From a virus (taxonomy: Duplodnaviria; Caudoviricetes): a stretch of DNA of 60,024 nt. Both the position numbers and the translations under genes were made by a program. The notes below the pieces were generated by a model, which saw nothing but the letters and a program-made list of their open reading frames with translations, was not told the DNA's origin and did no database searches. This document shows positions 1-60,024 of this stretch, piece by piece. Location: IMG/VR virus record IMGVR_UViG_3300012045_000001, positions 1-60,024 of that record, one strand, 5' to 3'. Position 1 is the first letter of the stretch; each line of letters opens with the position of its first letter.

Positions 1-228
1 ACCTACAACGAGATTATCAACTGCGTAGGTAAGGACTTGCCGCAAGTGATAAAGCCCAAAGACGGGGACGAGTTCTTTGCGGCCCTCGACAGCGAGGAAG
101 ACGAGGAGGACTTTCTGGACGCATTCTCCGATGGGGACACTGACGAGAGTGCGGAAGACGAGTTCCTGTCCGGCTTCGATGAGGCCAGTGACGAGGACTT
201 CTTTTCCAGCTTCGATGATGATGAATGA
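1..228 (+). CDS. C-terminal part of a hypothetical protein with an acidic tail (5' truncated by window)
   Basis: Frame 1 is open from base 1 to TGA 226-228; the tail holds four DEFFxAFD-like motifs. Confidence 0.75.
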   Translation, partial: TYNEIINCVGKDLPQVIKPKDGDEFFAALDSEEDEEDFLDAFSDGDTDESAEDEFLSGFDEASDEDFFSSFDDDE

Positions 229-257
229 CGTTGTTCATTGGTAGTAATGACCGCTCC

Positions 258-287
258 TTGACAGCAATGATTGAAATATGTTAGCAT
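258..287 (+). promoter_or_regulatory. sigma70-like promoter
   Basis: TTGACA-N18-TAGCAT with TG extension, upstream of the HNH gene. Confidence 0.55.
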
Positions 288-748
288 ATATTTCAGAGGT
301 TAAAGAGATGGCAAATTGTTTGAGATGTGAGGCCCATACCCAGAACAAATCCGGCTACTGTTCAAAGTTCTGCTACTATAATCGGAACGGAGATACAATA
401 CTGGATAAGTTCTGGGCCAAAGTAAATGTAACGAAAAAGTGCTGGACGTGGTTCGGCTCGACCAACTATAAAGGCTATGGCCTTTTTGGAGTTAAAGGAA
501 AGAACGTATCTACGCATATTTTCAGTTACAGAACATTTGTAGGGCCAATCAAAAATGGGATGCAGGTTTTACACACTTGCGATACACCGAATTGCATCAG
601 ACCGTCGCACCTTTATCAAGGGACAAATCAGGATAACTGCAATGATAAAGTTCTGCGCGGTCAGCAGTATGCAAAGGTTTCCTTGAAGCAGGCCGAACGG
701 ACGCGAAAGCGATACGCAAAAGGAAATATAACCCAGAGGCAACTGGCC

Positions 749-836
749 AACGAACGACCGAATTGACAAAGCCGCGCCTAAGCGACAAATTTCAAAAGCG
801 TGGCTAAAGCGGCTTTTGTCCAATGATTTGTTCGGC
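749..836 (-). other. attC recombination site (88 bp)
   Basis: R'' GCCGAAC, 5 nt spacer, L'' ATTGGAC with extra base, stem AAAGCCGC/GCGGCTTT, L' GTCAAT, R' GTTCGTT. Confidence 0.8.
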
Positions 837-1091
837 GTGTCATCATAACAGACAACCAAAATTATGACCAACGAAATAACAATAAAAGAATTGCTTTCGC
901 TTCTTTCAGCATTGACGGATGGCGGCGAATGCCGTTACGACCATCACGGATATTGCCAAGAACACGGTTGGTTTTACACCGACGAAGTTTGTCCGCATAA
1001 ACGGGCAAAAGAATTACTCGATTGGCAAGACAAACAACATTTCCGTCTCGTGATTGAAGTTCACGACCAAATTTAACTAAGAAACGCCGAA
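755..1091 (-). mobile_element. integron-type gene cassette inserted at a secondary GTT site
   Basis: On the - strand it starts G|TTCGGC (1092|1091) and ends in an attC whose R'' is GCCGAAC, the exact complement; precise removal restores the host ORF. Confidence 0.8.
864..1076 (+). CDS. 70 aa Cys/His-rich cassette protein, inverted relative to attC
   Basis: ORF fills the cassette; CRYDHHGYCQEHGW...CPH motif suggests metal binding. Confidence 0.65.
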   Translation: MTNEITIKELLSLLSALTDGGECRYDHHGYCQEHGWFYTDEVCPHKRAKELLDWQDKQHFRLVIEVHDQI

Positions 1092-1159
1092 CTCGGCGTT
1101 GACCAGTCAACGGTGTCTTACATAATCAGTGGGAAGACACGCACAGGAGAAATAAAGTA

Positions 1160-2359
1160 ATGAGTAAAAAAGGTCTAAACATCCAACAGCTTGCACAAAA
1201 GGTGCAGGCCCAGAATGAGTCGAAGAAAGACTTCTTGGTTAAAACCGAAGCAATCGCAATCGCTCCTATCCGCAGAGATGATGGGCCGTTTGCGGTAGCT
1301 TGGAAGGTAGGTAAAACCGAGACGGCTTTCGAGATGAATCGCTATATGCTGGGACAGGTTGCGACACACGCCAAGATACCGATGGCAGTCGTTGACTTGC
1401 TGGCTACTGGCACAAAGCGCGAACGGGAACAACTGGGACAACTCCTGAGCGTTCGCTTGCAGGACAATCCGACAAAACGAATGATTCGCACAATCGGAAC
1501 AGACGACGGCGAGAGCGTTTATGCCAGAGCATTTCTGTCAGACCGTTATCGCCCGATTGACAACTACGACCTGGCCCTTGCAGTTCTGCCGACACTCACG
1601 GAGATTGCCGACACGATACGCATTGAGTCTTCGGAAGTGACCGAGACCCGTATGTATCTGAAAGTCCTCTACCCTGAGATGGCCTTCGATATGGGGCCAA
1701 CCAGAGATAAGCTGGGCAAGCGGGTAGGCGACATCGTGCAGGCTGGAATAACGATTATGAACTCGGAAGTTGGCGCGGGGCGCATTTCGATTGACCCTTT
1801 CATCCTGCGGCTTGTCTGCACGAACGGTATGACGATGAATGATTCGTCCCTACGCAAAAATCACGTTGGACGTTCGCAGTGGACAGGTGAGATGGACGGG
1901 GCCGAGGCTTACGAGATTTACTCGGAAGAAACACTGGCCCTCGATGATGCCGCTTTCTTCAACAAGGTTACGGACACCATACGGGCCGTGCTGACCGACG
2001 AAGGCAAGTTCGAGAAACTCGTCACCCGCTTTATGGAAACTAAGGGGGAGAAGATTGTGGGACACCCGCAAGCCGCAGTCCAAGAACTCGCCAAACGCTT
2101 CACCTTCAACGAGGACGAATCCCAGAACGTCCTGACCCACCTTATCAATGGCCACGACTTATCCAAGTTCGGTATGATTAACGCAGTCACGGCATTCGCT
2201 CGTGATGACAAACGCAAGATGTCATACGATAGAGCATCCGAACTCGAACGCATCGGAGGCAACATCATCGAACTCGGGGCCTCGGACTGGAAAGTTATCT
2301 CCGAAGCCAAAATGAAGACAGTCACACCGCGCACTAGCAATAAGGCTAAACGGGCATAA
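1160..2359 (+). CDS. DUF932-like phage/plasmid protein
   Basis: RAFLSDRYRPIDN and NSEVGAGRISIDPFILRLVCTNGM motifs; RBS AGGAG. Confidence 0.7.
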   Translation: MSKKGLNIQQLAQKVQAQNESKKDFLVKTEAIAIAPIRRDDGPFAVAWKVGKTETAFEMNRYMLGQVATHAKIPMAVVDLLATGTKREREQLGQLLSVRLQDNPTKRMIRTIGTDDGESVYARAFLSDRYRPIDNYDLALAVLPTLTEIADTIRIESSEVTETRMYLKVLYPEMAFDMGPTRDKLGKRVGDIVQAGITIMNSEVGAGRISIDPFILRLVCTNGMTMNDSSLRKNHVGRSQWTGEMDGAEAYEIYSEETLALDDAAFFNKVTDTIRAVLTDEGKFEKLVTRFMETKGEKIVGHPQAAVQELAKRFTFNEDESQNVLTHLINGHDLSKFGMINAVTAFARDDKRKMSYDRASELERIGGNIIELGASDWKVISEAKMKTVTPRTSNKAKRA

Positions 2360-2413
2360 CAACAACCGGAGGAGGCTCGGTTACGGGCCTCCTTCATCAA
2401 ATAGGAGACACCA

Positions 2414-2941
2414 ATGAGCGACATAAAGAACAAGCTGGCCGGAATGATGATTCTCGGAAGCATCGGAGCGATGGGAAGGCAAGTCGAGGAAGACCCCAAC
2501 ATAGCGGCCCTCAAGAAACTGCACGAAGACAAAATGGCACGGAGGGTCAAGCCGAACACGACAATCGGACACGACTTGTCCCGCATCTCGCCGGACGAGG
2601 CCTTTATCACTGCCGGACAGAACGCCGAAAACGACAAATGGTATGCGGCTGTGATGCGAAGGCTTGCGCCGGAACACATACCGGAAGACGGCAACCCGTG
2701 GGCCGTAGCCGCTAAAAACAACGAGGGCTTTGCGACCGGAGCGGAGGCCAAGGCCGACGCATCGAAGATGTTCCCGCTCGTGCCTGTTCTGTCCGATGAC
2801 GGCAACGAGTATGAGTATCCGAACTATACGGACAGAGTAGAAGCAAAGGCGAAGATACTCAAGACGGCCCAGGACAGGCGGGATAAGCGCAACGCTCGTA
2901 TTGCAGAGAATATGCTCAAATCCAAAGGAGGCCGGAAATGA
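2414..2941 (+). CDS. hypothetical protein
   Basis: 175 aa ORF with RBS, coupled to next gene. Confidence 0.7.
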   Translation: MSDIKNKLAGMMILGSIGAMGRQVEEDPNIAALKKLHEDKMARRVKPNTTIGHDLSRISPDEAFITAGQNAENDKWYAAVMRRLAPEHIPEDGNPWAVAAKNNEGFATGAEAKADASKMFPLVPVLSDDGNEYEYPNYTDRVEAKAKILKTAQDRRDKRNARIAENMLKSKGGRK

Positions 2942-3054
2942 CAAATGAACAATGGGACATAATACTGGTAGTTTTAATAATCGTGGTTGTCCTCGTTATC
3001 GGGCTGTGGTTTGTCCGTATGATAATGAGGGCCTTGAAGGAGGACGACAAATAA
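2938..3054 (+). CDS. small single-TM membrane protein (38 aa)
   Basis: MTNEQWDIILVVLIIVVVLVIGLWFVR...; ATGA and TAATG overlaps at both ends; not in ORF track. Confidence 0.65.
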   Translation: MTNEQWDIILVVLIIVVVLVIGLWFVRMIMRALKEDDK

Positions 3055-7110: not shown

Positions 7111-8257
7111 CGGACTTTTACTCGACAGAGAGATGGCTTATGTTGGCAAAGAACTCGCCTGTGTCCTGGGCCTGCAACAAGCAATGATAATTCAACAGCT
7201 ACACTTTTTACTACTAAATGACAAGTGCGGGAAGGCCCTGGAAGACGGTTACAAGTATGTCTGGAACACATACGAGCAATGGAAAGAGCAATACTTTCCA
7301 TTCTGGGAAACGGACACCCTAAAGAAATACATACTGGGCCTTGAAAAGAAAGGGCTTATCATATCCGCAACTATCCACAACGGATACGAAAAGCATAAGT
7401 TTTATCGTATAAATTACGATGTCTTGCAGGCACGGATAATCGAATATAAGTCTAAAAGCCCACTTCCCGACCGTCGTGCAAATTTTGCATCAGGTTTAGA
7501 ATTGGAACAAAAAGAGACGAACTCGATGCAAAATTTGCACGACGGTCGTGCAAATAAAGCACGTTCTCTTAATAAGGAACAGAGTATTCTTACAGAGTGT
7601 CTTCCCCACGAGCAGGCGCAGGCCCACGTCCGCTCACGCGAACGCACACACGAGGGAGACGACGAGGACGATTTCTTCTCGGCTTTCGAGAGCCTCGAAG
7701 ACAACTCGGGCCTCGACATTGACATACCATTCGTTACTGACCGTCTTGTGAGCGGAGCGAACGGCTCTGGGCCACGCCAACCGAATGCCTTAGCCTTGCC
7801 CGAACAACCCTATCTCCTGCCGAGCCTTGCGCCGAAGGCTAAAAGAAGACGCAAGGCACATACAAACGGAAAGGCCAGCACTCCTATACCTCACACTGCC
7901 TTCAAGTTTATGTTCGAGTTGTGCTTTATGGCTGAAACCTACGAGCAACAACTGATATTAGATTCGAGACAGCGTGGGCGCGTAGCCTCAGCCTTGGGCA
8001 AGTTGCGTGATGCACAAGCATCACTGGGACAGATAAAAGACTTCAAGAAGTGGTGGGACGGGACTTGGATGGCAAAGACGAAAGGCTCTAACGCTTACCA
8101 ACCCCCAAGGCCCGAGCAAGTAGTCGAACACTGGAACGTAGCAATGAATCATTTGAAGGGTCTTGAGCCGAGGCCCGTAGAAGTTGTAGTCCACAACGAA
8201 GGACTAATGGAGGCGATGATGAAACGAGCGGAAGAACGTAAAGGAGGAGGAGCGTGA
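7103..8257 (+). CDS. putative replication initiator (N-terminal winged helix)
   Basis: YVWNTYEQWKEQYFPFW...LEKKGLI...YRINY typical of phage replisome organisers; precedes DnaB; internal inverted repeats. Confidence 0.7.
   Translation: MTNGLLLDREMAYVGKELACVLGLQQAMIIQQLHFLLLNDKCGKALEDGYKYVWNTYEQWKEQYFPFWETDTLKKYILGLEKKGLIISATIHNGYEKHKFYRINYDVLQARIIEYKSKSPLPDRRANFASGLELEQKETNSMQNLHDGRANKARSLNKEQSILTECLPHEQAQAHVRSRERTHEGDDEDDFFSAFESLEDNSGLDIDIPFVTDRLVSGANGSGPRQPNALALPEQPYLLPSLAPKAKRRRKAHTNGKASTPIPHTAFKFMFELCFMAETYEQQLILDSRQRGRVASALGKLRDAQASLGQIKDFKKWWDGTWMAKTKGSNAYQPPRPEQVVEHWNVAMNHLKGLEPRPVEVVVHNEGLMEAMMKRAEERKGGGA
7468..7555. repeat. perfect 24 bp inverted repeat plus nested palindrome; ori candidate
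   Basis: CGACCGTCGTGCAAATTTTGCATC (7468-7491) and its reverse complement (7525-7548); ATTTGCACGAC-G-GTCGTGCAAAT (7533-7555). Confidence 0.7.
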
Positions 8258-51879: not shown

Positions 51880-52410
51880 TTTTTCGTGTGTTCTCGCTTC
51901 CTGCGCGTGAGCCTGCGGGTGTGCCTGCTCGTGTATATGCGCGTGAGAGATACGGCCAATTTGTGTGATATGACCCTTTTATTGTGCGCTCGGACATTTA
52001 CAAAACGGCAAACTTTTGGAGATTGGAAAATTGGGGAGGTATCTGGAATTTGGCAGGCCAAACTTTTGGAGATTGGAAAATTGGGAATGTATCTTTAATT
52101 CGGTTACGTGGCCCCTGTCCCTTATCGCTTGCTCGGTTACATTCGGGCGCGTTCATACAGACGCACACGCACACATATACGCGCATAACACGCGCCTGTT
52201 CTAGTCTTCGCGCACGGGCGCACATACACACGCGCCCACTTCATTCAGTCGCCAGCCAAATGTGTGTGCCTGCGTATGCGCTTGCGTGTTCCTGTCTTCG
52301 CGTGTGCGCGTGTCGTATGCGCGTGTTCCTGTCTTCGCGCCCGTGTGCATACGCACGTCGCGCCCGTGCGTAAGAGTAGGATTACACGGGCGCACGTCGC
52401 ACACGCGCCC
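51880..52410. repeat. alternating purine-pyrimidine low-complexity tract with a 50 bp-period direct repeat
   Basis: (CA/CG/TG)n-rich; CAAACTTTTGGAGATTGGAAAATTGGG at 52009-52035 and 52059-52085. Confidence 0.8.
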
Positions 52411-52458
52411 GTTAAGAATGGATAGGCTGGGCTTTTGTCCCTTTGCTAAGTGGTTTAA

Positions 52459-52711
52459 TATCAACAGTTTAGCTATTATCACTTTCTTTGTTACAATCTT
52501 TGTCAGTCTAAAGCCCAATGAATACGGGCGTTTCAAGGCAGTTTGACAAAGTTTGTCAGTTCAAAGTGCCGTTTATTGTTACTTTTCGACGGTCAAGGCA
52601 AGGTTTGTGCCTCTCTAAAGTGTTGATTCTATTACACTTACAGGCGTTCCTTTAGTTTTACTCAATAAAACCGATGTAGCCAGTCATAAGTCTATTGTTT
52701 TCAACACTTTG
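52459..52711. promoter_or_regulatory. IHF-like sites and palindromic enhancer-like boxes
   Basis: WATCAAN4TTR at 52459-52471 (+) and 52616-52628 (-), near match 52699-52711; TGACAAAGTTTGTCA 52544-52558, variant 52491-52505. Confidence 0.55.
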
Positions 52712-52717
52712 CAACTG

Positions 52718-52733
52718 TGGCACGGCGACTGCA
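52718..52733 (+). promoter_or_regulatory. sigma54 (-24/-12) promoter
   Basis: TGGCACG-GCGA-CTGCA versus consensus TGGCACG-N4-TTGCW. Confidence 0.6.
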
Positions 52734-52744
52734 TTAGAACAAAC

Positions 52745-53660
52745 CGACAGCAACGGTGCTACTGGCTAACCCCGACACACAGCACGGTTGCGGACAACTT
52801 GTTAAACAGCAAACACAGTGGCGCGATAAGTTCTTTCGCGTATTCGGTAGATTAACGTCTGTGCGGAGGCTTAGAGTTGTCCCTAGCAAAGCGAAAAGAC
52901 ATACAAAGCACACGCATAACGCGGTTTAATTACCCCCTTGCGACTGGTCAACCCCGATATGTGCCTCTGTCCCTAGCGAAAATGCACAGATAGCAACGCG
53001 GTATCGAGTCCGCACGGCTGGAAGTGTGAGCATCTTTGGCGAAATTCAGGCTTAATTGCCCGTCTGCTCTAGGGACAAACGCGAGATGTAGATATTTGAC
53101 AACAAAAACACACACGCAACAAAGGCGCGGAGTGTATGCGAAACGGGACAACTATGCACGAAAGGTGTCCCACAGGAAAGCCGGAAAGCGGGCGTTGTGA
53201 AACGCCCAACAGTCAAGCACACAAAGGCGATTAGTGGGACATATCGGGAAAGGCGAAAGCGAAAGCACGACTGCAAGGGACGCATAACACAGGGACACGC
53301 GAACAGACGGCGGCGAGGGACAAGATACAAACGGCGGCAGTATGTCAGGGGACTAATCACAAGATTACTTGGGTGTGAAATATAAGCGGGTCAAGGGGAA
53401 CGTCTGAAACGGCAGTTATCCTAACAGGTGAGGCACAATAGCGTGAGCGTGTCCCTTTCCCGCAAAGCTAACGGGGTAACATCCCGCATAATGCGAATAA
53501 GCGCATTATAAACTTCCTTCCCGTGAAACGGAAGGGACATTTGAGCCTTTTGACTTTGTGGTAGTCCCAGTGAGCATCAAAAGGTTGAAATGTCCCTAAC
53601 CGGACATATACGCTTAGGCGTGAAATAACACTTGCCCCGCGTGTGGCTTAAAATACACGC
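52745..53660 (+). ncRNA. candidate large structured non-coding RNA or leader
   Basis: No credible ORF; many hairpins, GNRA loops and long-range helices. Confidence 0.5.
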
Positions 53661-53670
53661 TCTAAACACA

Positions 53671-54528
53671 ATGAAATCAACGAATAACAACGCAAAAATG
53701 ACCTTAACCGCAACCGAATTACAAGCAATTATCGCGTCCGCAGTAGCCAGCGCGTTATCACAATCGAGTGTCCCAGCCACGAGCGCGAAACTCGTGTCCC
53801 GTGTGCCTGTCGCCCCGATGGTGAAATCGCCCACGAAATCGCCCGTGAAATCAGTCCCGCAACCGACCGCAAGCGCAGAAGTTGACCCCAACGAAATCCG
53901 CATCGGCATCACGGCTGGGATGGTTGCCAACCGCTTGAAATTCCCGTCCCGTATCTTCGACCGCAACGGCGTAGCGTATGTGGACGGCGTGAAATACACC
54001 GCACAGCCGAATGACCAAAACCGTAGCACGAAAATTGGCGTTGGGACATACGGGCTGAAAGAGGGACAAACGCTTATCGTGTCCCGCGAAAATCCTCGCT
54101 CGAACAAGTGGGCGACGAAAGTGAGTGGCAAAGGCGTTGCAAGTGTCCCAGCCGTCGTCGCTCGTGTCGCTCCTGCGAAATCCGCGCCGAAAGTGTCCCT
54201 CACGCAAATTGCCGCTAAAATCGCTCCGAAAGCGGTCAAAGCCGCTCCGGTCAAAGCGGTAACGGAAAAAGAGGCGTATGTGCCTGTGTTCAACCGTGCG
54301 GACGCTATGAACATCAAGTCCCTGATTGCCGCAACAGCGAAACTCGCGCTGGCTGGTTACGGTGCGGGTGTTGAAAACACGAACTTGCTCCCAATCGAGG
54401 GACTTGAAGCTGACGCTCGTGTGTTCTTGTCCAGCCGTGAATCGTCGGCTTTCCGCTCGGCGCGTAAGAAACTGGGCGTGTCCCTTCGCAAAGCAGTCGA
54501 AATGCTGAATGATGAAGTGTATGGTTAG
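53671..54528 (+). CDS. first early-block protein: possible DNA-binding domain flanked by K/A/P/V-rich linkers
   Basis: Long ORF, terminator downstream; no clear SD. Confidence 0.7.
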   Translation: MKSTNNNAKMTLTATELQAIIASAVASALSQSSVPATSAKLVSRVPVAPMVKSPTKSPVKSVPQPTASAEVDPNEIRIGITAGMVANRLKFPSRIFDRNGVAYVDGVKYTAQPNDQNRSTKIGVGTYGLKEGQTLIVSRENPRSNKWATKVSGKGVASVPAVVARVAPAKSAPKVSLTQIAAKIAPKAVKAAPVKAVTEKEAYVPVFNRADAMNIKSLIAATAKLALAGYGAGVENTNLLPIEGLEADARVFLSSRESSAFRSARKKLGVSLRKAVEMLNDEVYG

Positions 54529-54564
54529 TATTACCGTAGTATGGTTAGTATTACCGTAGTATGG
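54519..54564. repeat. 20 bp tandem repeat (2.3 copies)
   Basis: GTATGGTTAGTATTACCGTA x2 plus GTATGG. Confidence 0.9.
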
Positions 54565-54594
54565 CTAATCGCAAGCGTAAGGCGTGTGTAATCT

Positions 54595-54625
54595 GGGACA
54601 GTGCCTTTGACTGTCCCTTTCTTTT
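54595..54625 (+). terminator. intrinsic terminator
   Basis: GGGACAGT/ACTGTCCC stem plus T tract. Confidence 0.7.
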
Positions 54626-54655
54626 GTGTCCCTAATCTGAAATGGAGTGTGCATA

Positions 54656-54981
54656 ATGAAAAAGCGAGTCAAACCAACGCTTAAAAGCGAAATGAGAGTT
54701 GTAACAAGTCCCAGCACGTTTGCATACGGACAAACGGCGAAATTCGGCAAGCCTGCGATGATCCTGCGATGATGGCAAGCGAACAAGCGAAACGTGATGA
54801 GGCGAAACGGGTGTCCCTGCTACGTGCATCGCAGTATGCGTATGAGCAGGAACAGCAAATTGCTAAAGAGATGGTTGGATATGACTGGGACAATGTTCAC
54901 GGCATACTTACACAGGCAAAAGGCACGATGTCCCTTGAGCGGGCTAAAGAACTCAGTTTGTTTATCAAAGGAGCGAAATAA
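54656..54981 (+). pseudogene. ORF split by an 11 bp tandem duplication
   Basis: CCTGCGATGAT x2 (54752-54773); removing one copy fuses MKKRVKP... with MMASEQ... Confidence 0.6.
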
Positions 54982-55169
54982 TGAAAGGACTACTCGTATT
55001 TGCAATAATCGTGGGACTGGCGTTCTGGGCTTTCGGCTCGTTCGCACAATCCGTAATCACAAACCAAACCGTCGTTCGTAACGCGAATGATGCGAAACTG
55101 TCCCAGTGCGTAAGCGCAGGGGCATCAACCGAAACCGAATGTCTGTTAGCACAATTAGGAGCGAAATAG
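54981..55169 (+). CDS. small secreted/membrane protein
   Basis: Signal-like N-terminus; RBS. Confidence 0.6.
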   Translation: MKGLLVFAIIVGLAFWAFGSFAQSVITNQTVVRNANDAKLSQCVSAGASTETECLLAQLGAK

Positions 55170-55413
55170 TATGTATAAACACGAAAAAGCGGGACTGATA
55201 GCGTTAATCGTAACGCTTATGTGGCTGGTGAGCCTGTTGGCTTGCTTTGCCCGATGAAACAATTCAGACACACCAATCGAGTGTCCCAGCAGGATAGGGA
55301 CACGAAACGTAATACGAAACAGGACAGACGAGCGCGAAGGCTCGTGATACAAGCACTGTCCCAGTATCGTCGGCAATTAACGAAACTAACACAGATAAAT
55401 GGAGGACAAACAA

Positions 55414-55692
55414 ATGATAGTAGTATGCACACGACGACCGCAGGTTGAAATCACAGATGCACCGGAACAAACTCACAGCAAACCGCGTAGCATCAAAGTC
55501 ATCAAAGCTGGGACACATAAAGCAGTCCCGACTCCCACGTTAGACGCGAAACCCAAGCGCATACCAGACAGCGAAATCCGTGAGTCTTGGGTCAAAGCCA
55601 AAAACGAATCGAAATCAAGTGCCTATCGGATAGCGATGGCTTTCTTCTTCGATGTCCCAGATGTATCAATGCAGACAATAGGAGCGAAATAA
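55414..55692 (+). CDS. hypothetical protein
   Basis: GGAGG RBS. Confidence 0.6.
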   Translation: MIVVCTRRPQVEITDAPEQTHSKPRSIKVIKAGTHKAVPTPTLDAKPKRIPDSEIRESWVKAKNESKSSAYRIAMAFFFDVPDVSMQTIGAK

Positions 55693-56228
55693 TGAACGAA
55701 CAAACAACAAATTCAATGTGCGTATCGTGTGAGACGATATTTAACAAGTCCGGCGCGAGATGCGGGACACAATGCCCAGTGTGTCGTGGGACAGTGCGGG
55801 AAGTTTTAACCGGAGTGATTGATAATAACTCAGTCCCGCACATCTGGGACGAACTCGGAAGCGGGAACGAAATCAATCTGGACTACGAGAACGCGCTTCG
55901 AGAACACAAACTCGAATGCGGCGAAGACGAGTCGTGCGCCGAGCGTGGACACGAGGACTGGAATGACGAGTATGAGTCCCAATCGGATACGATGCTGATT
56001 GGGGACTGGGCTAAGGACTCGGACGGTGATTATGTCCCAATCGTGAATGGGGACAAAGGGTATGCCGCGATAGTCCGCGAGTCGGTGTCCCAAGTGGTCT
56101 GGTCAAGAGCGATTGCGAAACGGAAATCAATGTGTAGTCCCTGCTATCCGATGCAAGCGGACTTGGACTCTGGGGATGGGACAATACCGTGCTATGCCTT
56201 CCCAGCCGATATGATGGAGGAAAACTAA
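55692..56228 (+). CDS. Cys-rich acidic hypothetical protein
   Basis: CxxC pairs; TAATG coupling. Confidence 0.65.
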   Translation: MNEQTTNSMCVSCETIFNKSGARCGTQCPVCRGTVREVLTGVIDNNSVPHIWDELGSGNEINLDYENALREHKLECGEDESCAERGHEDWNDEYESQSDTMLIGDWAKDSDGDYVPIVNGDKGYAAIVRESVSQVVWSRAIAKRKSMCSPCYPMQADLDSGDGTIPCYAFPADMMEEN

Positions 56229-56554
56229 TGAATCACGAAACTTACAGGGACTCAAGTAGAGGCGTATTCGAGCGGGTCAGCAAGCCGATTGCGAGACGTG
56301 CTTATAAGGAGGGACAGTCAATCTGGCTTGTCCCTTCGCACGTTGCTTTCAGCTTTAGCAATCAGTGGGTTGTCCCGTGCGAAATAAGCACGGCAAACGA
56401 CACGAACGACTCGACGGACTTTGACCGGACTGTGAACAACTACGAGTATTACAACTGTTGTTCGGAGTTAGGGACATACACGAGGTTTTTCATAGTGAGA
56501 CCGAAGGAGAGGAACGACCCGAAGGAGGGACAATTAAATGAAATACATAGTTGA
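56228..56554 (+). CDS. hypothetical protein
   Basis: GGAGG RBS; YEYYNC..ELG.Y. Confidence 0.65.
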   Translation: MNHETYRDSSRGVFERVSKPIARRAYKEGQSIWLVPSHVAFSFSNQWVVPCEISTANDTNDSTDFDRTVNNYEYYNCCSELGTYTRFFIVRPKERNDPKEGQLNEIHS

Positions 56555-56699
56555 AATCGAAGTGGACACTGACGCGCTCAGAGAGGCGCGGGGGGACACT
56601 GACGACGATAGCGTAATCGAAGCACTCGAAGCGGAGTTCGGCTGGCTTGCAGAATCCGGCATAACCGTTGTTTCGATTGACGAAAAGCACGATGTTTAA
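56538..56699 (+). CDS. small acidic protein (53 aa)
   Basis: AAGGAGG RBS; MKYIVEIEVD...; not in ORF track. Confidence 0.6.
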   Translation: MKYIVEIEVDTDALREARGDTDDDSVIEALEAEFGWLAESGITVVSIDEKHDV

Positions 56700-56766
56700 T
56701 GGCGAGTTGCAAAATGGCAACCAATGAGTTATAATGAGAAAACCAATCAGCTAAGGAGACAAACAA

Positions 56767-57366
56767 ATGAACAGTGAAACATACGACCGAGTGGGACACG
56801 CAATCACGCAGTCCCTTATACAGAGCGAGGACTTAACCAACATCATCGAATCCGATATGGCATCCGACGACGGGGACATCGCCTTCGGAATGGAAAACGA
56901 AGCGTTCGCGCTTATGGAAACCCTGTTTGCCAAGTTCGGCGCGGACTTAGGCGAGGACGGACTTCGAGAGTCGAATGTCCCAGAGCATAAGGCACTGACC
57001 GTGCTTATCGAATCTATGGGCATACCGGAAACATATCAGTTGTGCGAAGCAATCACGTATGTCCTGCTTGACCCAGAGCCAATGGATATACCGAGTGGGA
57101 CAGAGGGCGAAACATACTTCGACGGGACAGGGACGATATTCAAGTCCCTTGATGCTGACGGATGCGCTTCGTTTCGCAAGTGGGCGAGAGACAATTACAT
57201 CATCGGGGACGCATACCCGAAAGACATCTGGCATCCGGTTACGGTTAGCGAAATCGAAAAGATGAACTTTGAAGCGTTTGGCGAGGACGGGGACACCGTG
57301 AAAGCGGACGCGGATAATTACAACACCGAAGACGACAACGGGGACTGGACTCCAGTAAAGAGTTAG
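56767..57366 (+). CDS. acidic hypothetical protein
   Basis: TAAGGAG RBS. Confidence 0.7.
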   Translation: MNSETYDRVGHAITQSLIQSEDLTNIIESDMASDDGDIAFGMENEAFALMETLFAKFGADLGEDGLRESNVPEHKALTVLIESMGIPETYQLCEAITYVLLDPEPMDIPSGTEGETYFDGTGTIFKSLDADGCASFRKWARDNYIIGDAYPKDIWHPVTVSEIEKMNFEAFGEDGDTVKADADNYNTEDDNGDWTPVKS

Positions 57367-57499
57367 ACTGAGGATTGAGGGCGTAAGGGACACTATGAAC
57401 CTTGCGCCTTCATTCGTTTGTCTAAACGCAAACGGTTAGAATAAATCAGTCCCAAGTGCGGCTGGGACTTAATTGCCGCACATACAAGGACATACAATT

Positions 57500-58552
57500 A
57501 TGGCAACGAAGAAATTAAACGACGACCAGAAACGCGACCTCATCATTGACACGCTTGGTGAACTGGGACAAATGAGTCCGCAGGATTTGATGAGCCGCAC
57601 AGGGACAAAGGGAGCGGACATCAAACACATCGTCAAGGAACTCAAAGACGATGGGACAATGGTTATCAGTGGGAATTCGTGCAGGCTATCGGATGAAGCG
57701 CAAGCCGAATACGATAACGCGAAAGTTCCGGCTGTCCCAGTCAAAGTCAAAGCAAAACCGAAAGCCGCTCCAGTTGCGGCAGTTGCGACTGCGCCAGCTA
57801 AACCGTCAAAGCCGACGAAGGTTGTCCCAGTTGTCGAAGAAGACATACCGGAACTCGAATACGAACTCGAAGACGATGGGACAGGCGAACCGGAAGAAGA
57901 CGTGGACGAAATGATAAACGAATACAACGCGCTTCAAGCCAAGTCCCGCAAGAACAAAACCGAACAGGCGCGATACCAAACACTCGAAGAACGGCTTGAC
58001 GAGTTAGGCGTGTTTGACCCAGAGGAGGATGCAGATGGGAGCAGTAGCGTGGATGAAATGGAGGATGGGACAGGAACAGAGGGACTTGGAGAAGGCGACC
58101 TTGAAGGCTTCGATGATGAAACTGAGAGCGGAGGCGAAGGCGAAGATAGTCCCGAAGGCGACGAAGACCCCGACGCATTTGAAGACGACCACGATGACGA
58201 CTTCTCCGACGACCACGATTCAGACGAAGACGAAGACCCAGTGGAGGAGGAAGCTGTCCCAGCCAGACCGACTAAGGCGCAAGCTAAAGGGACTGCGAAA
58301 CCGAGTGCTGGAAAACCGAGTCCCAAAACGGCGAAAGTTGCCGGAGCAGGAAGTCGAGTAACCGACCCGCAAGCGGCGTTCTCAATGTCGTTCAAGCCGA
58401 TTGACACGCTGACCGATGACGAACTCGAAACCCGCATCGAATCCGCGACCGAAGCGGCTGAGATGTTATCGGGACAGGGACACGAGGACGTTGCCGAAAT
58501 GCTGATGCGCTCCGTAGCCAAAGCAAGAAAGCAACTAAACAAACGCTCATAG
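57500..58552 (+). CDS. winged-helix protein with long acidic region
   Basis: IIDTLGELGQMSPQDLMSRTG...IVKELKDDG wHTH pattern; D/E-rich middle. Confidence 0.7.
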   Translation: MATKKLNDDQKRDLIIDTLGELGQMSPQDLMSRTGTKGADIKHIVKELKDDGTMVISGNSCRLSDEAQAEYDNAKVPAVPVKVKAKPKAAPVAAVATAPAKPSKPTKVVPVVEEDIPELEYELEDDGTGEPEEDVDEMINEYNALQAKSRKNKTEQARYQTLEERLDELGVFDPEEDADGSSSVDEMEDGTGTEGLGEGDLEGFDDETESGGEGEDSPEGDEDPDAFEDDHDDDFSDDHDSDEDEDPVEEEAVPARPTKAQAKGTAKPSAGKPSPKTAKVAGAGSRVTDPQAAFSMSFKPIDTLTDDELETRIESATEAAEMLSGQGHEDVAEMLMRSVAKARKQLNKRS

Positions 58553-58565
58553 CCGAGCAAGGACT

Positions 58566-58601
58566 GGGACAGCCGCACATCATACTGCGGCTGTCCCTTT
58601 T
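58566..58601 (+). terminator. intrinsic terminator
   Basis: GGGACAGCCGCA/TGCGGCTGTCCC 12 bp stem plus TTTT. Confidence 0.75.
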
Positions 58602-58617
58602 ACATAGGAGAAACAAA

Positions 58618-58788
58618 ATGACAGCATACGTTATAGTGGGACAGGATTACGGGACACAGGAAACAAACTGCTTCGGTGTATTCAGCGACCGAGAGAAAGC
58701 TGACATTGCACTGGGACATCTTAAAGACGATGAAACGGGCGTTGACTTGCAGATTATTGAGATGACGGTCAACGAGGAAGTAATTTAA
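58618..58788 (+). CDS. small hypothetical protein (56 aa)
   Basis: AGGAG RBS; FGVFSDREKA; not in ORF track. Confidence 0.6.
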   Translation: MTAYVIVGQDYGTQETNCFGVFSDREKADIALGHLKDDETGVDLQIIEMTVNEEVI

Positions 58789-58809
58789 CACTGGAGGGAC
58801 ACAAAGCAA

Positions 58810-59421
58810 ATGGACATCAACGATTACAGAGAGGCACTGAAAACCAACAACTACAACTACAATCGCAACAAGGATGTGTCAATCCTATTCCGGCGCAAAG
58901 TCGAGAAATGGATTAACGAGAAAACTGGGGACAAGGTTTATTTACTCTTTGCCCCTAACGGCAAAACAATAATGACACGGGAAATCGGACTCACCGATTT
59001 AGTCCCAGACGTTGTTGTAACGTCCAACAATTCGACGTGGGCGATGGATGATGTCAAGGGCGCGGCGATGGAGCGCGGAATAAAGATGAGCGACGAACAA
59101 GCCCAACACTTACTCGAAGACAATGCCAAAGGCATCGGGACTTATGGCTGGGACGGCATCTCGAACGTGCTTGATGACGTGAGGACTTGTGATGAGTGTA
59201 GCCGTGCGGTTGACGTGATACCGGACACTGAAACGGACAACGGCTCGTATGAGTTGCTGGACGGACTGCACATCTGCGAGGACTGCAAAATCAAAGGCGA
59301 CTATGTTGCCTGTATTGAATGTGAGGCGTATCACCCGAAGGGACTGATGAAGCACGTCGGAGGAATTGCACCAGACCAACAGGACTATGTATGTCCGAGT
59401 TGTGAAAAGGAGGAAAACTAA
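58810..59421 (+). CDS. Zn-finger hypothetical protein
   Basis: Four CxxC pairs. Confidence 0.65.
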   Translation: MDINDYREALKTNNYNYNRNKDVSILFRRKVEKWINEKTGDKVYLLFAPNGKTIMTREIGLTDLVPDVVVTSNNSTWAMDDVKGAAMERGIKMSDEQAQHLLEDNAKGIGTYGWDGISNVLDDVRTCDECSRAVDVIPDTETDNGSYELLDGLHICEDCKIKGDYVACIECEAYHPKGLMKHVGGIAPDQQDYVCPSCEKEEN

Positions 59422-59639
59422 TGAGCATCGAAATACAAAGTAAGGACGTGGGACTGGACATTGATGATGTAACCGCAGACCGGAAGGACTACAACTCGCC
59501 GGACTGGGACACGGTTACTTCTGGGGACACTGCGGAGGACGCTCTGCGCTCTCTCGTGTCTATGCTTAACTCGGAAGAAATTGACGACGTGAATCTGTAT
59601 TATCGCGCAGTAGATACGACAAGGGAGATTGTTTTATGA
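59421..59639 (+). CDS. acidic hypothetical protein
   Basis: AGGAGG RBS. Confidence 0.6.
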   Translation: MSIEIQSKDVGLDIDDVTADRKDYNSPDWDTVTSGDTAEDALRSLVSMLNSEEIDDVNLYYRAVDTTREIVL

Positions 59640-59778
59640 CGGTATTTCTCGTGTTAATTATATTCGCCTGTCTGATAGGCTGGGCAAAGGAAAACCTCTG
59701 GTCAGAAAACGACACGCAAAACTTCGCGCAAGCCGCGAGGCACGGGACTAGAATGAGAAAATAGGAGGACTTGGGACT

Positions 59779-60024
59779 ATGACACCAGATAATTTGAATG
59801 AGTTCCAACGGGGCTATGTAGAATGTGCCTTGTGGACTAGCAACGAATACAGCAAGGACGCGGACGGCTTGGACTGTCCCCACAACTTCTTAGACCAGAA
59901 CTACGGAGTCAAGGACATTGACAGTGGGACAATCAAGCAAATGATTAAGGACTGCAATCAGTTCTATCAGGACAACGCGCAAGACATCATACGAGTTTGC
60001 GACAGCAAAGCAAACACATACAAC
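59779..60024 (+). CDS. hypothetical protein (3' truncated)
   Basis: AGGAGG RBS; MTPDNLNEFQRGYVECALWTS..., open to window end. Confidence 0.6.
   Translation, partial: MTPDNLNEFQRGYVECALWTSNEYSKDADGLDCPHNFLDQNYGVKDIDSGTIKQMIKDCNQFYQDNAQDIIRVCDSKANTYN

Follow-up and report, generated by a model that had tools for sequence, protein, structure and literature searches.

The 60,024-base genome of a Caudoviricetes phage (IMG/VR record IMGVR_UViG_3300012045_000001, rated 100% complete by CheckV) was analysed over its whole length, to which we refer as the window. Near its left end, a gene for an HNH_3 endonuclease is interrupted by 337 bp (755-1091) which carry a 70-aa open reading frame (ORF) and most of an 88-nt site with the anatomy of the attC recombination sites of integrons. 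We consider it likely that this insert is one integron-type cassette, comprising the ORF and the attC site, which entered the HNH gene by site-specific recombination with an integrase supplied in trans. The locus seems to capture a natural event before and after, one phage being seen both in a form that carries the cassette and in one that lacks it; the crossover is mapped within 5 bases and lies in a gene that the phage can evidently do without. Our literature searches brought up no published case in which a lone cassette has entered a phage genome and the empty site is also known.

Precise insertion and the empty allele

Read on the minus strand, which is the top strand of the attC site, the insert starts with TTCGGC at 1091, continues with the reverse complement of the 70-aa ORF and then with the 88-nt site (836 down to 749), and itself ends with the G of the R' box at 755; it is present as a single copy in the genome. 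The HNH frame stops 12 nt beyond position 754, and the truncated ORF, which starts at 308 (or 278) and runs on the plus strand to 766, receives its last 4 codons and stop (755-766) from the insert. On the other side lies the orphaned 3' end of the gene (1092-1160, plus strand), consisting of 22 codons of a helix-turn-helix tail and a TAA stop which shares one base with the ATG of the downstream DUF932 gene (TAATG). Deletion of 755-1091 rejoins the HNH frame up to the TAATG overlap and restores a tail that matches, at every alignment column, those of four phage HNH_3 homologues (phiGT1, RAD13, cta39025 and Mx9). All four homologues run on beyond the nuclease core into a short C-terminal helix-turn-helix, within which the break falls, and the two window pieces align to them with no residue missing or extra (MAFFT, with X at the break). 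An initial annotation, made from the sequence alone, had described a discrete and precisely inserted element whose removal restores the helix-turn-helix tail and the TAATG coupling; both the translation of 1092-1160 and the four-homologue alignment bear this out.

The two ends of the insert share a direct identity of 5 bases, CGAAC (GTTCG on the minus strand; 751-755 and 1088-1092), which corrects the overlap of 4 bases given initially, and the boundary is ambiguous by these 5 nt. Strand exchange took place within the shared bases, which contain the trinucleotide G|TT.

Two public sequencing runs hold the region, here called X1, possibly the run of the source sample itself, and X2, from another sample and study. 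In X1, both filled junctions are crossed by Logan contigs with 0 differences. In X2, a 318-nt contig joins position 750 to 1088 and omits exactly the same 337 bases; 5 letters at the joint could belong to either side, and there are 0 differences over 1088-1320. This joint is the empty-site allele, a search for which had been proposed as a check on the insertion. The empty form is the ancestral one, since it restores the conserved domain, and the insertion event appears to be recent, since the flanks are identical in the filled and empty forms.

Inside the insert, the Logan contigs of X1 are interrupted at 808-837 and 1021-1043, and the insert-only contig has a depth of 5.59 compared with 6.4 and 8.05 for the flanking contigs, and no empty joint was reported in X1. 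These breaks and the lower depth could reflect graph branching or a mixed population. Coverage gaps of X2 over 939-1087 were set aside and no evidence was drawn from them. At the right junction, the phage flank is complementary to the first cassette bases in a perfect 8+8 palindrome (1083-1100), and a 6+6 palindrome is found in the phage flank at 1098-1111.

Anatomy of the attC-type site and its crossover target

The attC-type site occupies 749-836 on the minus strand and consists of R' (749-755), a 6-nt spacer (756-761), L' (762-775), a 33-nt loop (776-808), L'' (809-824) with two single-base bulges, a 5-nt spacer (825-829) and R'' (830-836). In the excised circle, R' would be completed by the first six cassette bases, TTCGGC (1086-1091), which pair with R''. 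R'' (GCCGAAC) and the circle-form R' (GTTCGGC) are complementary at 7/7 positions, and the complementarity reaches 11/12 nt (92%) when 830-841 are paired with 1081-1092, in line with the initial description of a minus-strand attC whose R'' complements the entry site. The AAC and GTT of the R boxes match the RYYYAAC / GTTRRRY consensus exactly. In the folded geometry, spacers of 5 and 6 nt are followed by an L box of 3 bp, bulge, 6 bp and bulge. The minimum-energy fold of the circle-form bottom strand likewise shows an R stem, unpaired spacers, an L stem with two bulges and a loop; at -18.4 kcal/mol (z = -4.6), it is matched in stability by 0 of 300 mononucleotide shuffles.

Our own geometry scan, which looks for AAC...GTT cores and allows 4-6 and 5-7 nt for the spacers as well as bulges in the stem, was calibrated on real sites. 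It gave a score of 12 for the window site, 13-15.5 for six class 1 attC sites (aadA1, aadA2, cmlA1, estX, psp and qacH) from the array of phage P1 MH445380, and 9-11 for sites of a Vibrio anguillarum array. Five of the six class 1 sites have 5- and 6-nt spacers, and five of the six have the series 3 bp, bulge, 6 bp, bulge (7 bp between the bulges in cmlA1). The window site resembles them in box order, spacers and bulge spacing, and its R''-plus-spacer is identical to that of cmlA1 at 11 of 12 positions, while it differs in its longer loop. Simulated first-order Markov sequence totalling 32.28 Mb gave 39 hits with a score of at least 12, of which 14 also had at least 5/7 R-box pairs and 2 also canonical spacers, which puts the chance of a site with such geometry at about 6e-8 per base and strand.

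We also built two covariance models, R1 from the six class 1 sites and R2 from 13 sites, as proxies for the attC model check that had been suggested. R1 assigned 25.7 bits to the window site, matching along the whole model; with filters off, E was ~4e-4, a rough value, and the next best hit in the window reached 12.6 bits. R2 gave 23.8 bits, again at full model length and with filters off. Applied to other phages, R1 found three sites in TJE1 (21.9, 25.8 and 26.4 bits), for which three attC sites are given in a figure legend (PMC9892861), three sites in H101 (33.4, 32.3 and 17.9 bits) and two in the M16-3 array region (26.1 and 21.8 bits), and no site in P12002L. R2 scored Vibrio attC sites on which it had not been trained at 13-25.5 bits. 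The scores of the window site fall in the span covered by published attC sites from phages and from Vibrio. Moreover, the site has a defined polarity, since its plus-strand reading does not score.

The position of the crossover agrees with what is known of integron integrases. Integrase-catalysed insertion at non-att 'attG' sites follows a GWT consensus (-1 to +2), to which hot spots add CRGM at +6 to +9, as reported by Loot et al. (bioRxiv 10.1101/2022.09.11.507474). On the minus strand, the crossover reads G|TT inside the 5-nt boundary window and fits GWT, as anticipated by the initial assignment to a GTT-type secondary site, and the target has TGGC at +6 to +9, which matches 3/4 of the hot-spot motif. 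The boundary containing this G|TT, followed by the cassette start TTCGGC, is set by the HNH frame and the X2 joint. At E<=1, the window contains no Phage_integrase-family tyrosine recombinase, no serine recombinase and no Y1 (IS200/IS605-type) transposase, and neither intI, the absence of which had been noted before, nor a cassette array is found within the 60-kb window. Because the phage encodes no recombinase, the enzyme would have acted in trans, and we infer that it was an integron integrase (IntI).

In the mechanism we propose, a cell under infection by the phage would have contained the cassette, either as an excised circle or in single-stranded form. The attC bottom strand, which corresponds to the phage plus strand, would fold into a hairpin of R stem, unpaired spacer and L stem with two extrahelical bases, and an integron integrase provided in trans would exchange strands at AA|C / G|TT with the double-stranded attG-like site GTTCG in the phage. 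The junction would then be resolved by phage replication. As a consequence of the insertion, the C-terminal helix-turn-helix is lost from the HNH protein, probably together with its DNA binding, and translation of the HNH and DUF932 genes is no longer coupled.

Further sequences in X2 touch on the same site. Single X2 contigs agree with the window over 809-843, from 818 onward, or as far as 768 and then diverge into sequence that this phage lacks, leaving loose ends at 768, 809, 818 and 843; judging from contig depth bookkeeping, the one with its loose end at 768 seems to begin within the HNH gene. Of the flanks of these loose ends, two were searched in IMG/VR and four in the window, the latter with up to 3 mismatches, and 0 matches were obtained. 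The diverging contigs could represent further members of the attC family or different inserts at this position. The target contains, upstream of the crossover, a GTCAA that is shifted by one base relative to the attC L' box, and the target may resemble the attC's own L'-R' half. A rather doubtful extension of our reading is that the helix-turn-helix end of the HNH gene serves as a recurrent attI-like docking site for a lytic phage and not as a one-off secondary site. It is suggested because X2 holds the empty allele as well as a contig which appears to run from the HNH gene through the first 14 attC bases into different sequence, because other X2 contigs join the same attC arms to other sequence, and because of the out-of-register GTCAA in the target. 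If this is true, the phage population would sample a cassette pool at a fixed site without an integrase of its own.

Cargo, origin and rival explanations

The cargo ORF (864-1076, plus strand) encodes a small Cys/His protein of 70 aa and runs in the direction of phage transcription, antisense to the top strand of attC, the co-orientation with phage genes and inversion relative to attC having been noted at the outset. It is the sole conserved ORF of the cassette, and no promoterless top-strand ORF lies upstream of attC. No Shine-Dalgarno motif is evident upstream of the cargo, and no promoter was found on the plus strand inside the cassette; lying in sense to the phage early transcript, the cargo may be expressed from there. 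Its closest homologue (P0002) is 79% identical across all 70 residues, and a scan of IMG/VR with P0002 found nothing. Distant homologues occur at 24 IMG/VR loci, 3 metagenome loci and in 2 actinobacterial genomes, the scans of genome and metagenome contigs giving distant relatives only (2/106 and 3/296 candidate stretches). Among cultured phages, the family is found in 5 records, all from phages of Arthrobacter or Mycobacterium and hence of actinobacterial hosts. Ten residues of a Cys/His-rich motif are invariant in 30 sequences (C23, D26, H27, H28, G29, Y30, C31, Q32, H34 and C43). The cargo matches three PHROGs without an assigned function and, in a protein atlas, unnamed viral clusters only (scores <=0.80); no Pfam match was found. 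A confident AlphaFold2 model (predicted local distance difference test, pLDDT, 87) shows two helices around a loop and gave no PDB fold match at E<=0.001.

The composition of the insert is foreign to the phage. Its GC content is 43.6% compared with 51.3% for the phage, which is within the lowest 1.3% of 337-bp windows, and it contains AATT 6 times compared with 0.75 expected. As already remarked in the initial annotation, it lacks GGCC, which occurs at 10.7 per kb in the genome (P ~0.027), and it sits in the largest GGCC-free gap of the GGCC-rich 52 kb. The insert also avoids short palindromes as the phage does, with 11 4-bp palindromes compared with 21-23 expected (P ~0.004-0.01) and no GATC, CATG or GTAC compared with 2.7-3.7 expected for the three together. 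This shared avoidance hints at a donor under the same restriction pressure as the phage. Since the cargo belongs to a phage gene family, the donor may have come from the phage world and not from a bacterial array. The hope that the attC sequence would point to the host was not borne out, as it had no match in plasmids, phages or IMG/VR; specifically, a 20-nt arm pattern of the site gave 0 matches in IMG/VR, and 749-1100 had no match to plasmids by blastn. A shorter 16-nt L'-R' pattern was found at 4 IMG/VR loci, which were rejected as chance matches, none of them scoring with R1.

Several observations weigh against an integron cassette inserted by an integrase. At the site itself, the fourth position of R'' and of R' departs from the RYYYAAC / GTTRRRY consensus in each box, in a mutually compensating manner and unlike the class 1 sites, and of the two extrahelical bases of the bottom strand, C and T, the outer one is C where the class 1 sites examined (G and T) have G. 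In its integrated form, the hairpin together with its flanks (116 nt) barely beats dinucleotide shuffles (z = -1.4 and -1.6). Both covariance models are small proxies with rough E-values; R1 is narrow and missed all of the about 15 Vibrio attC sites, and R2 drops the window site when its default filters are used. The empty allele is a single contig with a depth of 2.9. No other copy of the attC, no intI and no array were retrieved in plasmids, phages or IMG/VR. The cargo family is seen only in phages and prophage-like loci, and an attC-like site is absent from all 29 other loci which carry a cargo homologue (R1 gave 0 hits at E<=10 in their 247,160 bases), for which reason the family appears to be ordinarily a plain phage gene. 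The inverted orientation of the cargo ORF relative to attC also counts here; this is atypical for cassettes, although inverted cassettes exist in chromosomal arrays. Finally, integrons are reported to be nearly absent from Actinomycetota (PMC13323075). The cargo family, the inverted ORF and this near-absence are the main points against a simple origin from a host array.

Part of these observations could be accommodated if the site were an attC-like site of a cassette system run by a non-IntI recombinase, for example a phage-borne, integron-like array with a small Xer-type enzyme, and the cassette had come from a co-infecting phage. Such a system would fit the phage gene family of the cargo and the short-palindrome avoidance which the insert shares with the phage. 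However, the site scores with models whose training sets consisted of genuine integron attC sites only, it has the exact spacer and bulge geometry in common with those sites, and the phage holds no such array or recombinase; we regard this explanation as unlikely. Mosaicism is common in phages, and a gene with an upstream hairpin could have been copied from another phage by microhomology (illegitimate) recombination at GTTCG, with a fortuitous likeness to attC. This would account for the five identical bases at both junctions and for a cargo family which is an ordinary gene in other phages. It would leave to coincidence, however, a geometry as rare by chance as calculated above, a predicted cleavage point inside the 5-nt boundary, a far end which completes a 7/7 R box and a site singled out by two attC models, and we judge it improbable.

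A non-autonomous element, either a miniature inverted-repeat transposable element (MITE) or an IS200/IS605-type, palindrome-associated insertion sequence, with a 5-bp target duplication would be small, would be flanked by a 5-nt direct repeat and could have a large subterminal hairpin at one end, all of which is seen here. The 5-nt repeat is explained equally by a crossover within shared bases, however, and the insert has no terminal inverted repeats, while its second end is without a hairpin of its own and has only the junction-spanning palindrome at 1083-1100. Together with the lack of Y1, serine and tyrosine recombinases, the single genome copy and a blank Rfam scan of 1-3000, this makes such an element very improbable, and the MITE with target duplication which the initial annotation had itself raised as an alternative is not upheld. 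That the junctions are an assembly artefact, or that the empty form is a chimeric contig, might be thought from the low depth of the lone 318-nt contig and from the breaks of X1 contigs inside the insert. We find this hardly credible, as independent X1 Logan contigs cross both filled junctions without a difference and the empty joint restores the conserved frame exactly, which is not expected of a chimera across 5 shared bases.

An integron-type cassette, which we prefer, has parallels in two settings described previously. From laboratory work, bacterial chromosomes are known to take up integron cassettes away from att sites; lone cassettes, named SALINs, and insertion at attG sites in bacterial genomes have been reported by Loot et al. 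(bioRxiv 10.1101/2022.09.11.507474; Nat Microbiol 2024). Our locus is alike in that a single ORF with attC has neither an integrase nor another att site close by, that the recipient site is double-stranded, is not an att site and has G|WT at the cleavage point, that the target gene is dispensable and that the cassette could be excised precisely. It differs in that the recipient is a phage genome and not a bacterial chromosome, and in that both the filled and the empty allele are found in natural samples; in the part of Loot et al. available, phage is mentioned only with regard to lambda integrase. In phages, Qi et al. 2023 described 17 attC clusters, including some in virulent phages, in a screen which needed at least 2 attC sites per phage, and IntI1 recombined 5/6 of the phage attC sites tested (PMC9892861). 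The idea of phages as cassette vehicles is thus already in print there for attC clusters in virulent phages (PMC9892861). These phage CALINs resemble our site in that attC sites occur in phages encoding no integrase and in their R1 scores (21.9-26.4 bits in TJE1, 25.7 bits here); they differ in that the screen of Qi et al. gave no insertion site, empty allele or entry mechanism, whereas here the crossover of one cassette is mapped in a gene. Compared with class 1 cassettes, ours has an inverted cargo which is not a resistance gene. The locus combines the cases of Qi et al. and Loot et al., in that a phage carries a single cassette at an attG-like site and both alleles occur in nature. It lends support to the view that phages receive, and may carry, integron cassettes, shows that a phage-type gene can serve as cassette cargo and offers a defined pair of site and target for recombination assays.

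The interrupted gene, its neighbours and the phage genome

The HNH ORF matches Pfam HNH_3 (PF13392) with E=6.9e-8 and 32.5 bits, above the curated cut-off of 24.8, as well as 7 PHROG families of endonucleases or HNH endonucleases. By tblastn, relatives were found in 1,669 phage records, every one of them below 60% identity. In the empty allele, the protein resembles free-standing HNH_3 homing endonucleases (I-HmuI-like; the phiGT1 annotation cites PDB 1U3E) in having an HNH_3 core and a DNA-binding tail; it differs from them in the filled allele, where the tail is cut off by the cassette. Upstream of the gene, a sigma-70-like promoter match (258-287, plus strand; TTGACA, 18 nt, TAGCAT with TG; 10/12) was found by consensus and is the likely source of a transcript reading through the insert. 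The downstream neighbour (1160-2359, plus strand) belongs to DUF932 (Pfam, E=1.6e-7; phrog_1362, E=4.7e-41) and retains its own AGGAG ribosome-binding site. No close relative of the phage was found among GenBank phages (blastn of 300-2400) or in IMG/VR (scans with the HNH and DUF932 proteins). No known RNA families were detected in 1-3000 (Rfam), and no tRNAs were found.

Window-wide, the avoidance of palindromes is extreme: 51/64 six-base palindromes are absent, each of which is expected about 12-17 times, compared with only 230/4,032 non-palindromic hexamers. CATG and GTAC do not occur in the window and GATC occurs 3 times (16762, 31365 and 54760); no C5 or N4/N6 methyltransferase families were found in the phage. 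GGCC has 645 copies, which is 2.5x the expectation from base composition and 1.5x that from a second-order Markov model. All of them are confined to 1-52113, with none in the last 7,911 bases (52114-60024, GC 50.5%), and this GGCC-free end might mark a first-entering or differently protected segment. Bordering it, an ORF open at the 5' end of the record (1-228) has a very acidic tail with Asp/Glu-Phe repeats. Furthermore, a strong, near-perfect hairpin at 7516-7569 reaches 11.5 and 12 on the two strands in the attC geometry scan; with non-canonical spacers and without a covariance-model score, it is probably a terminator or regulatory hairpin.

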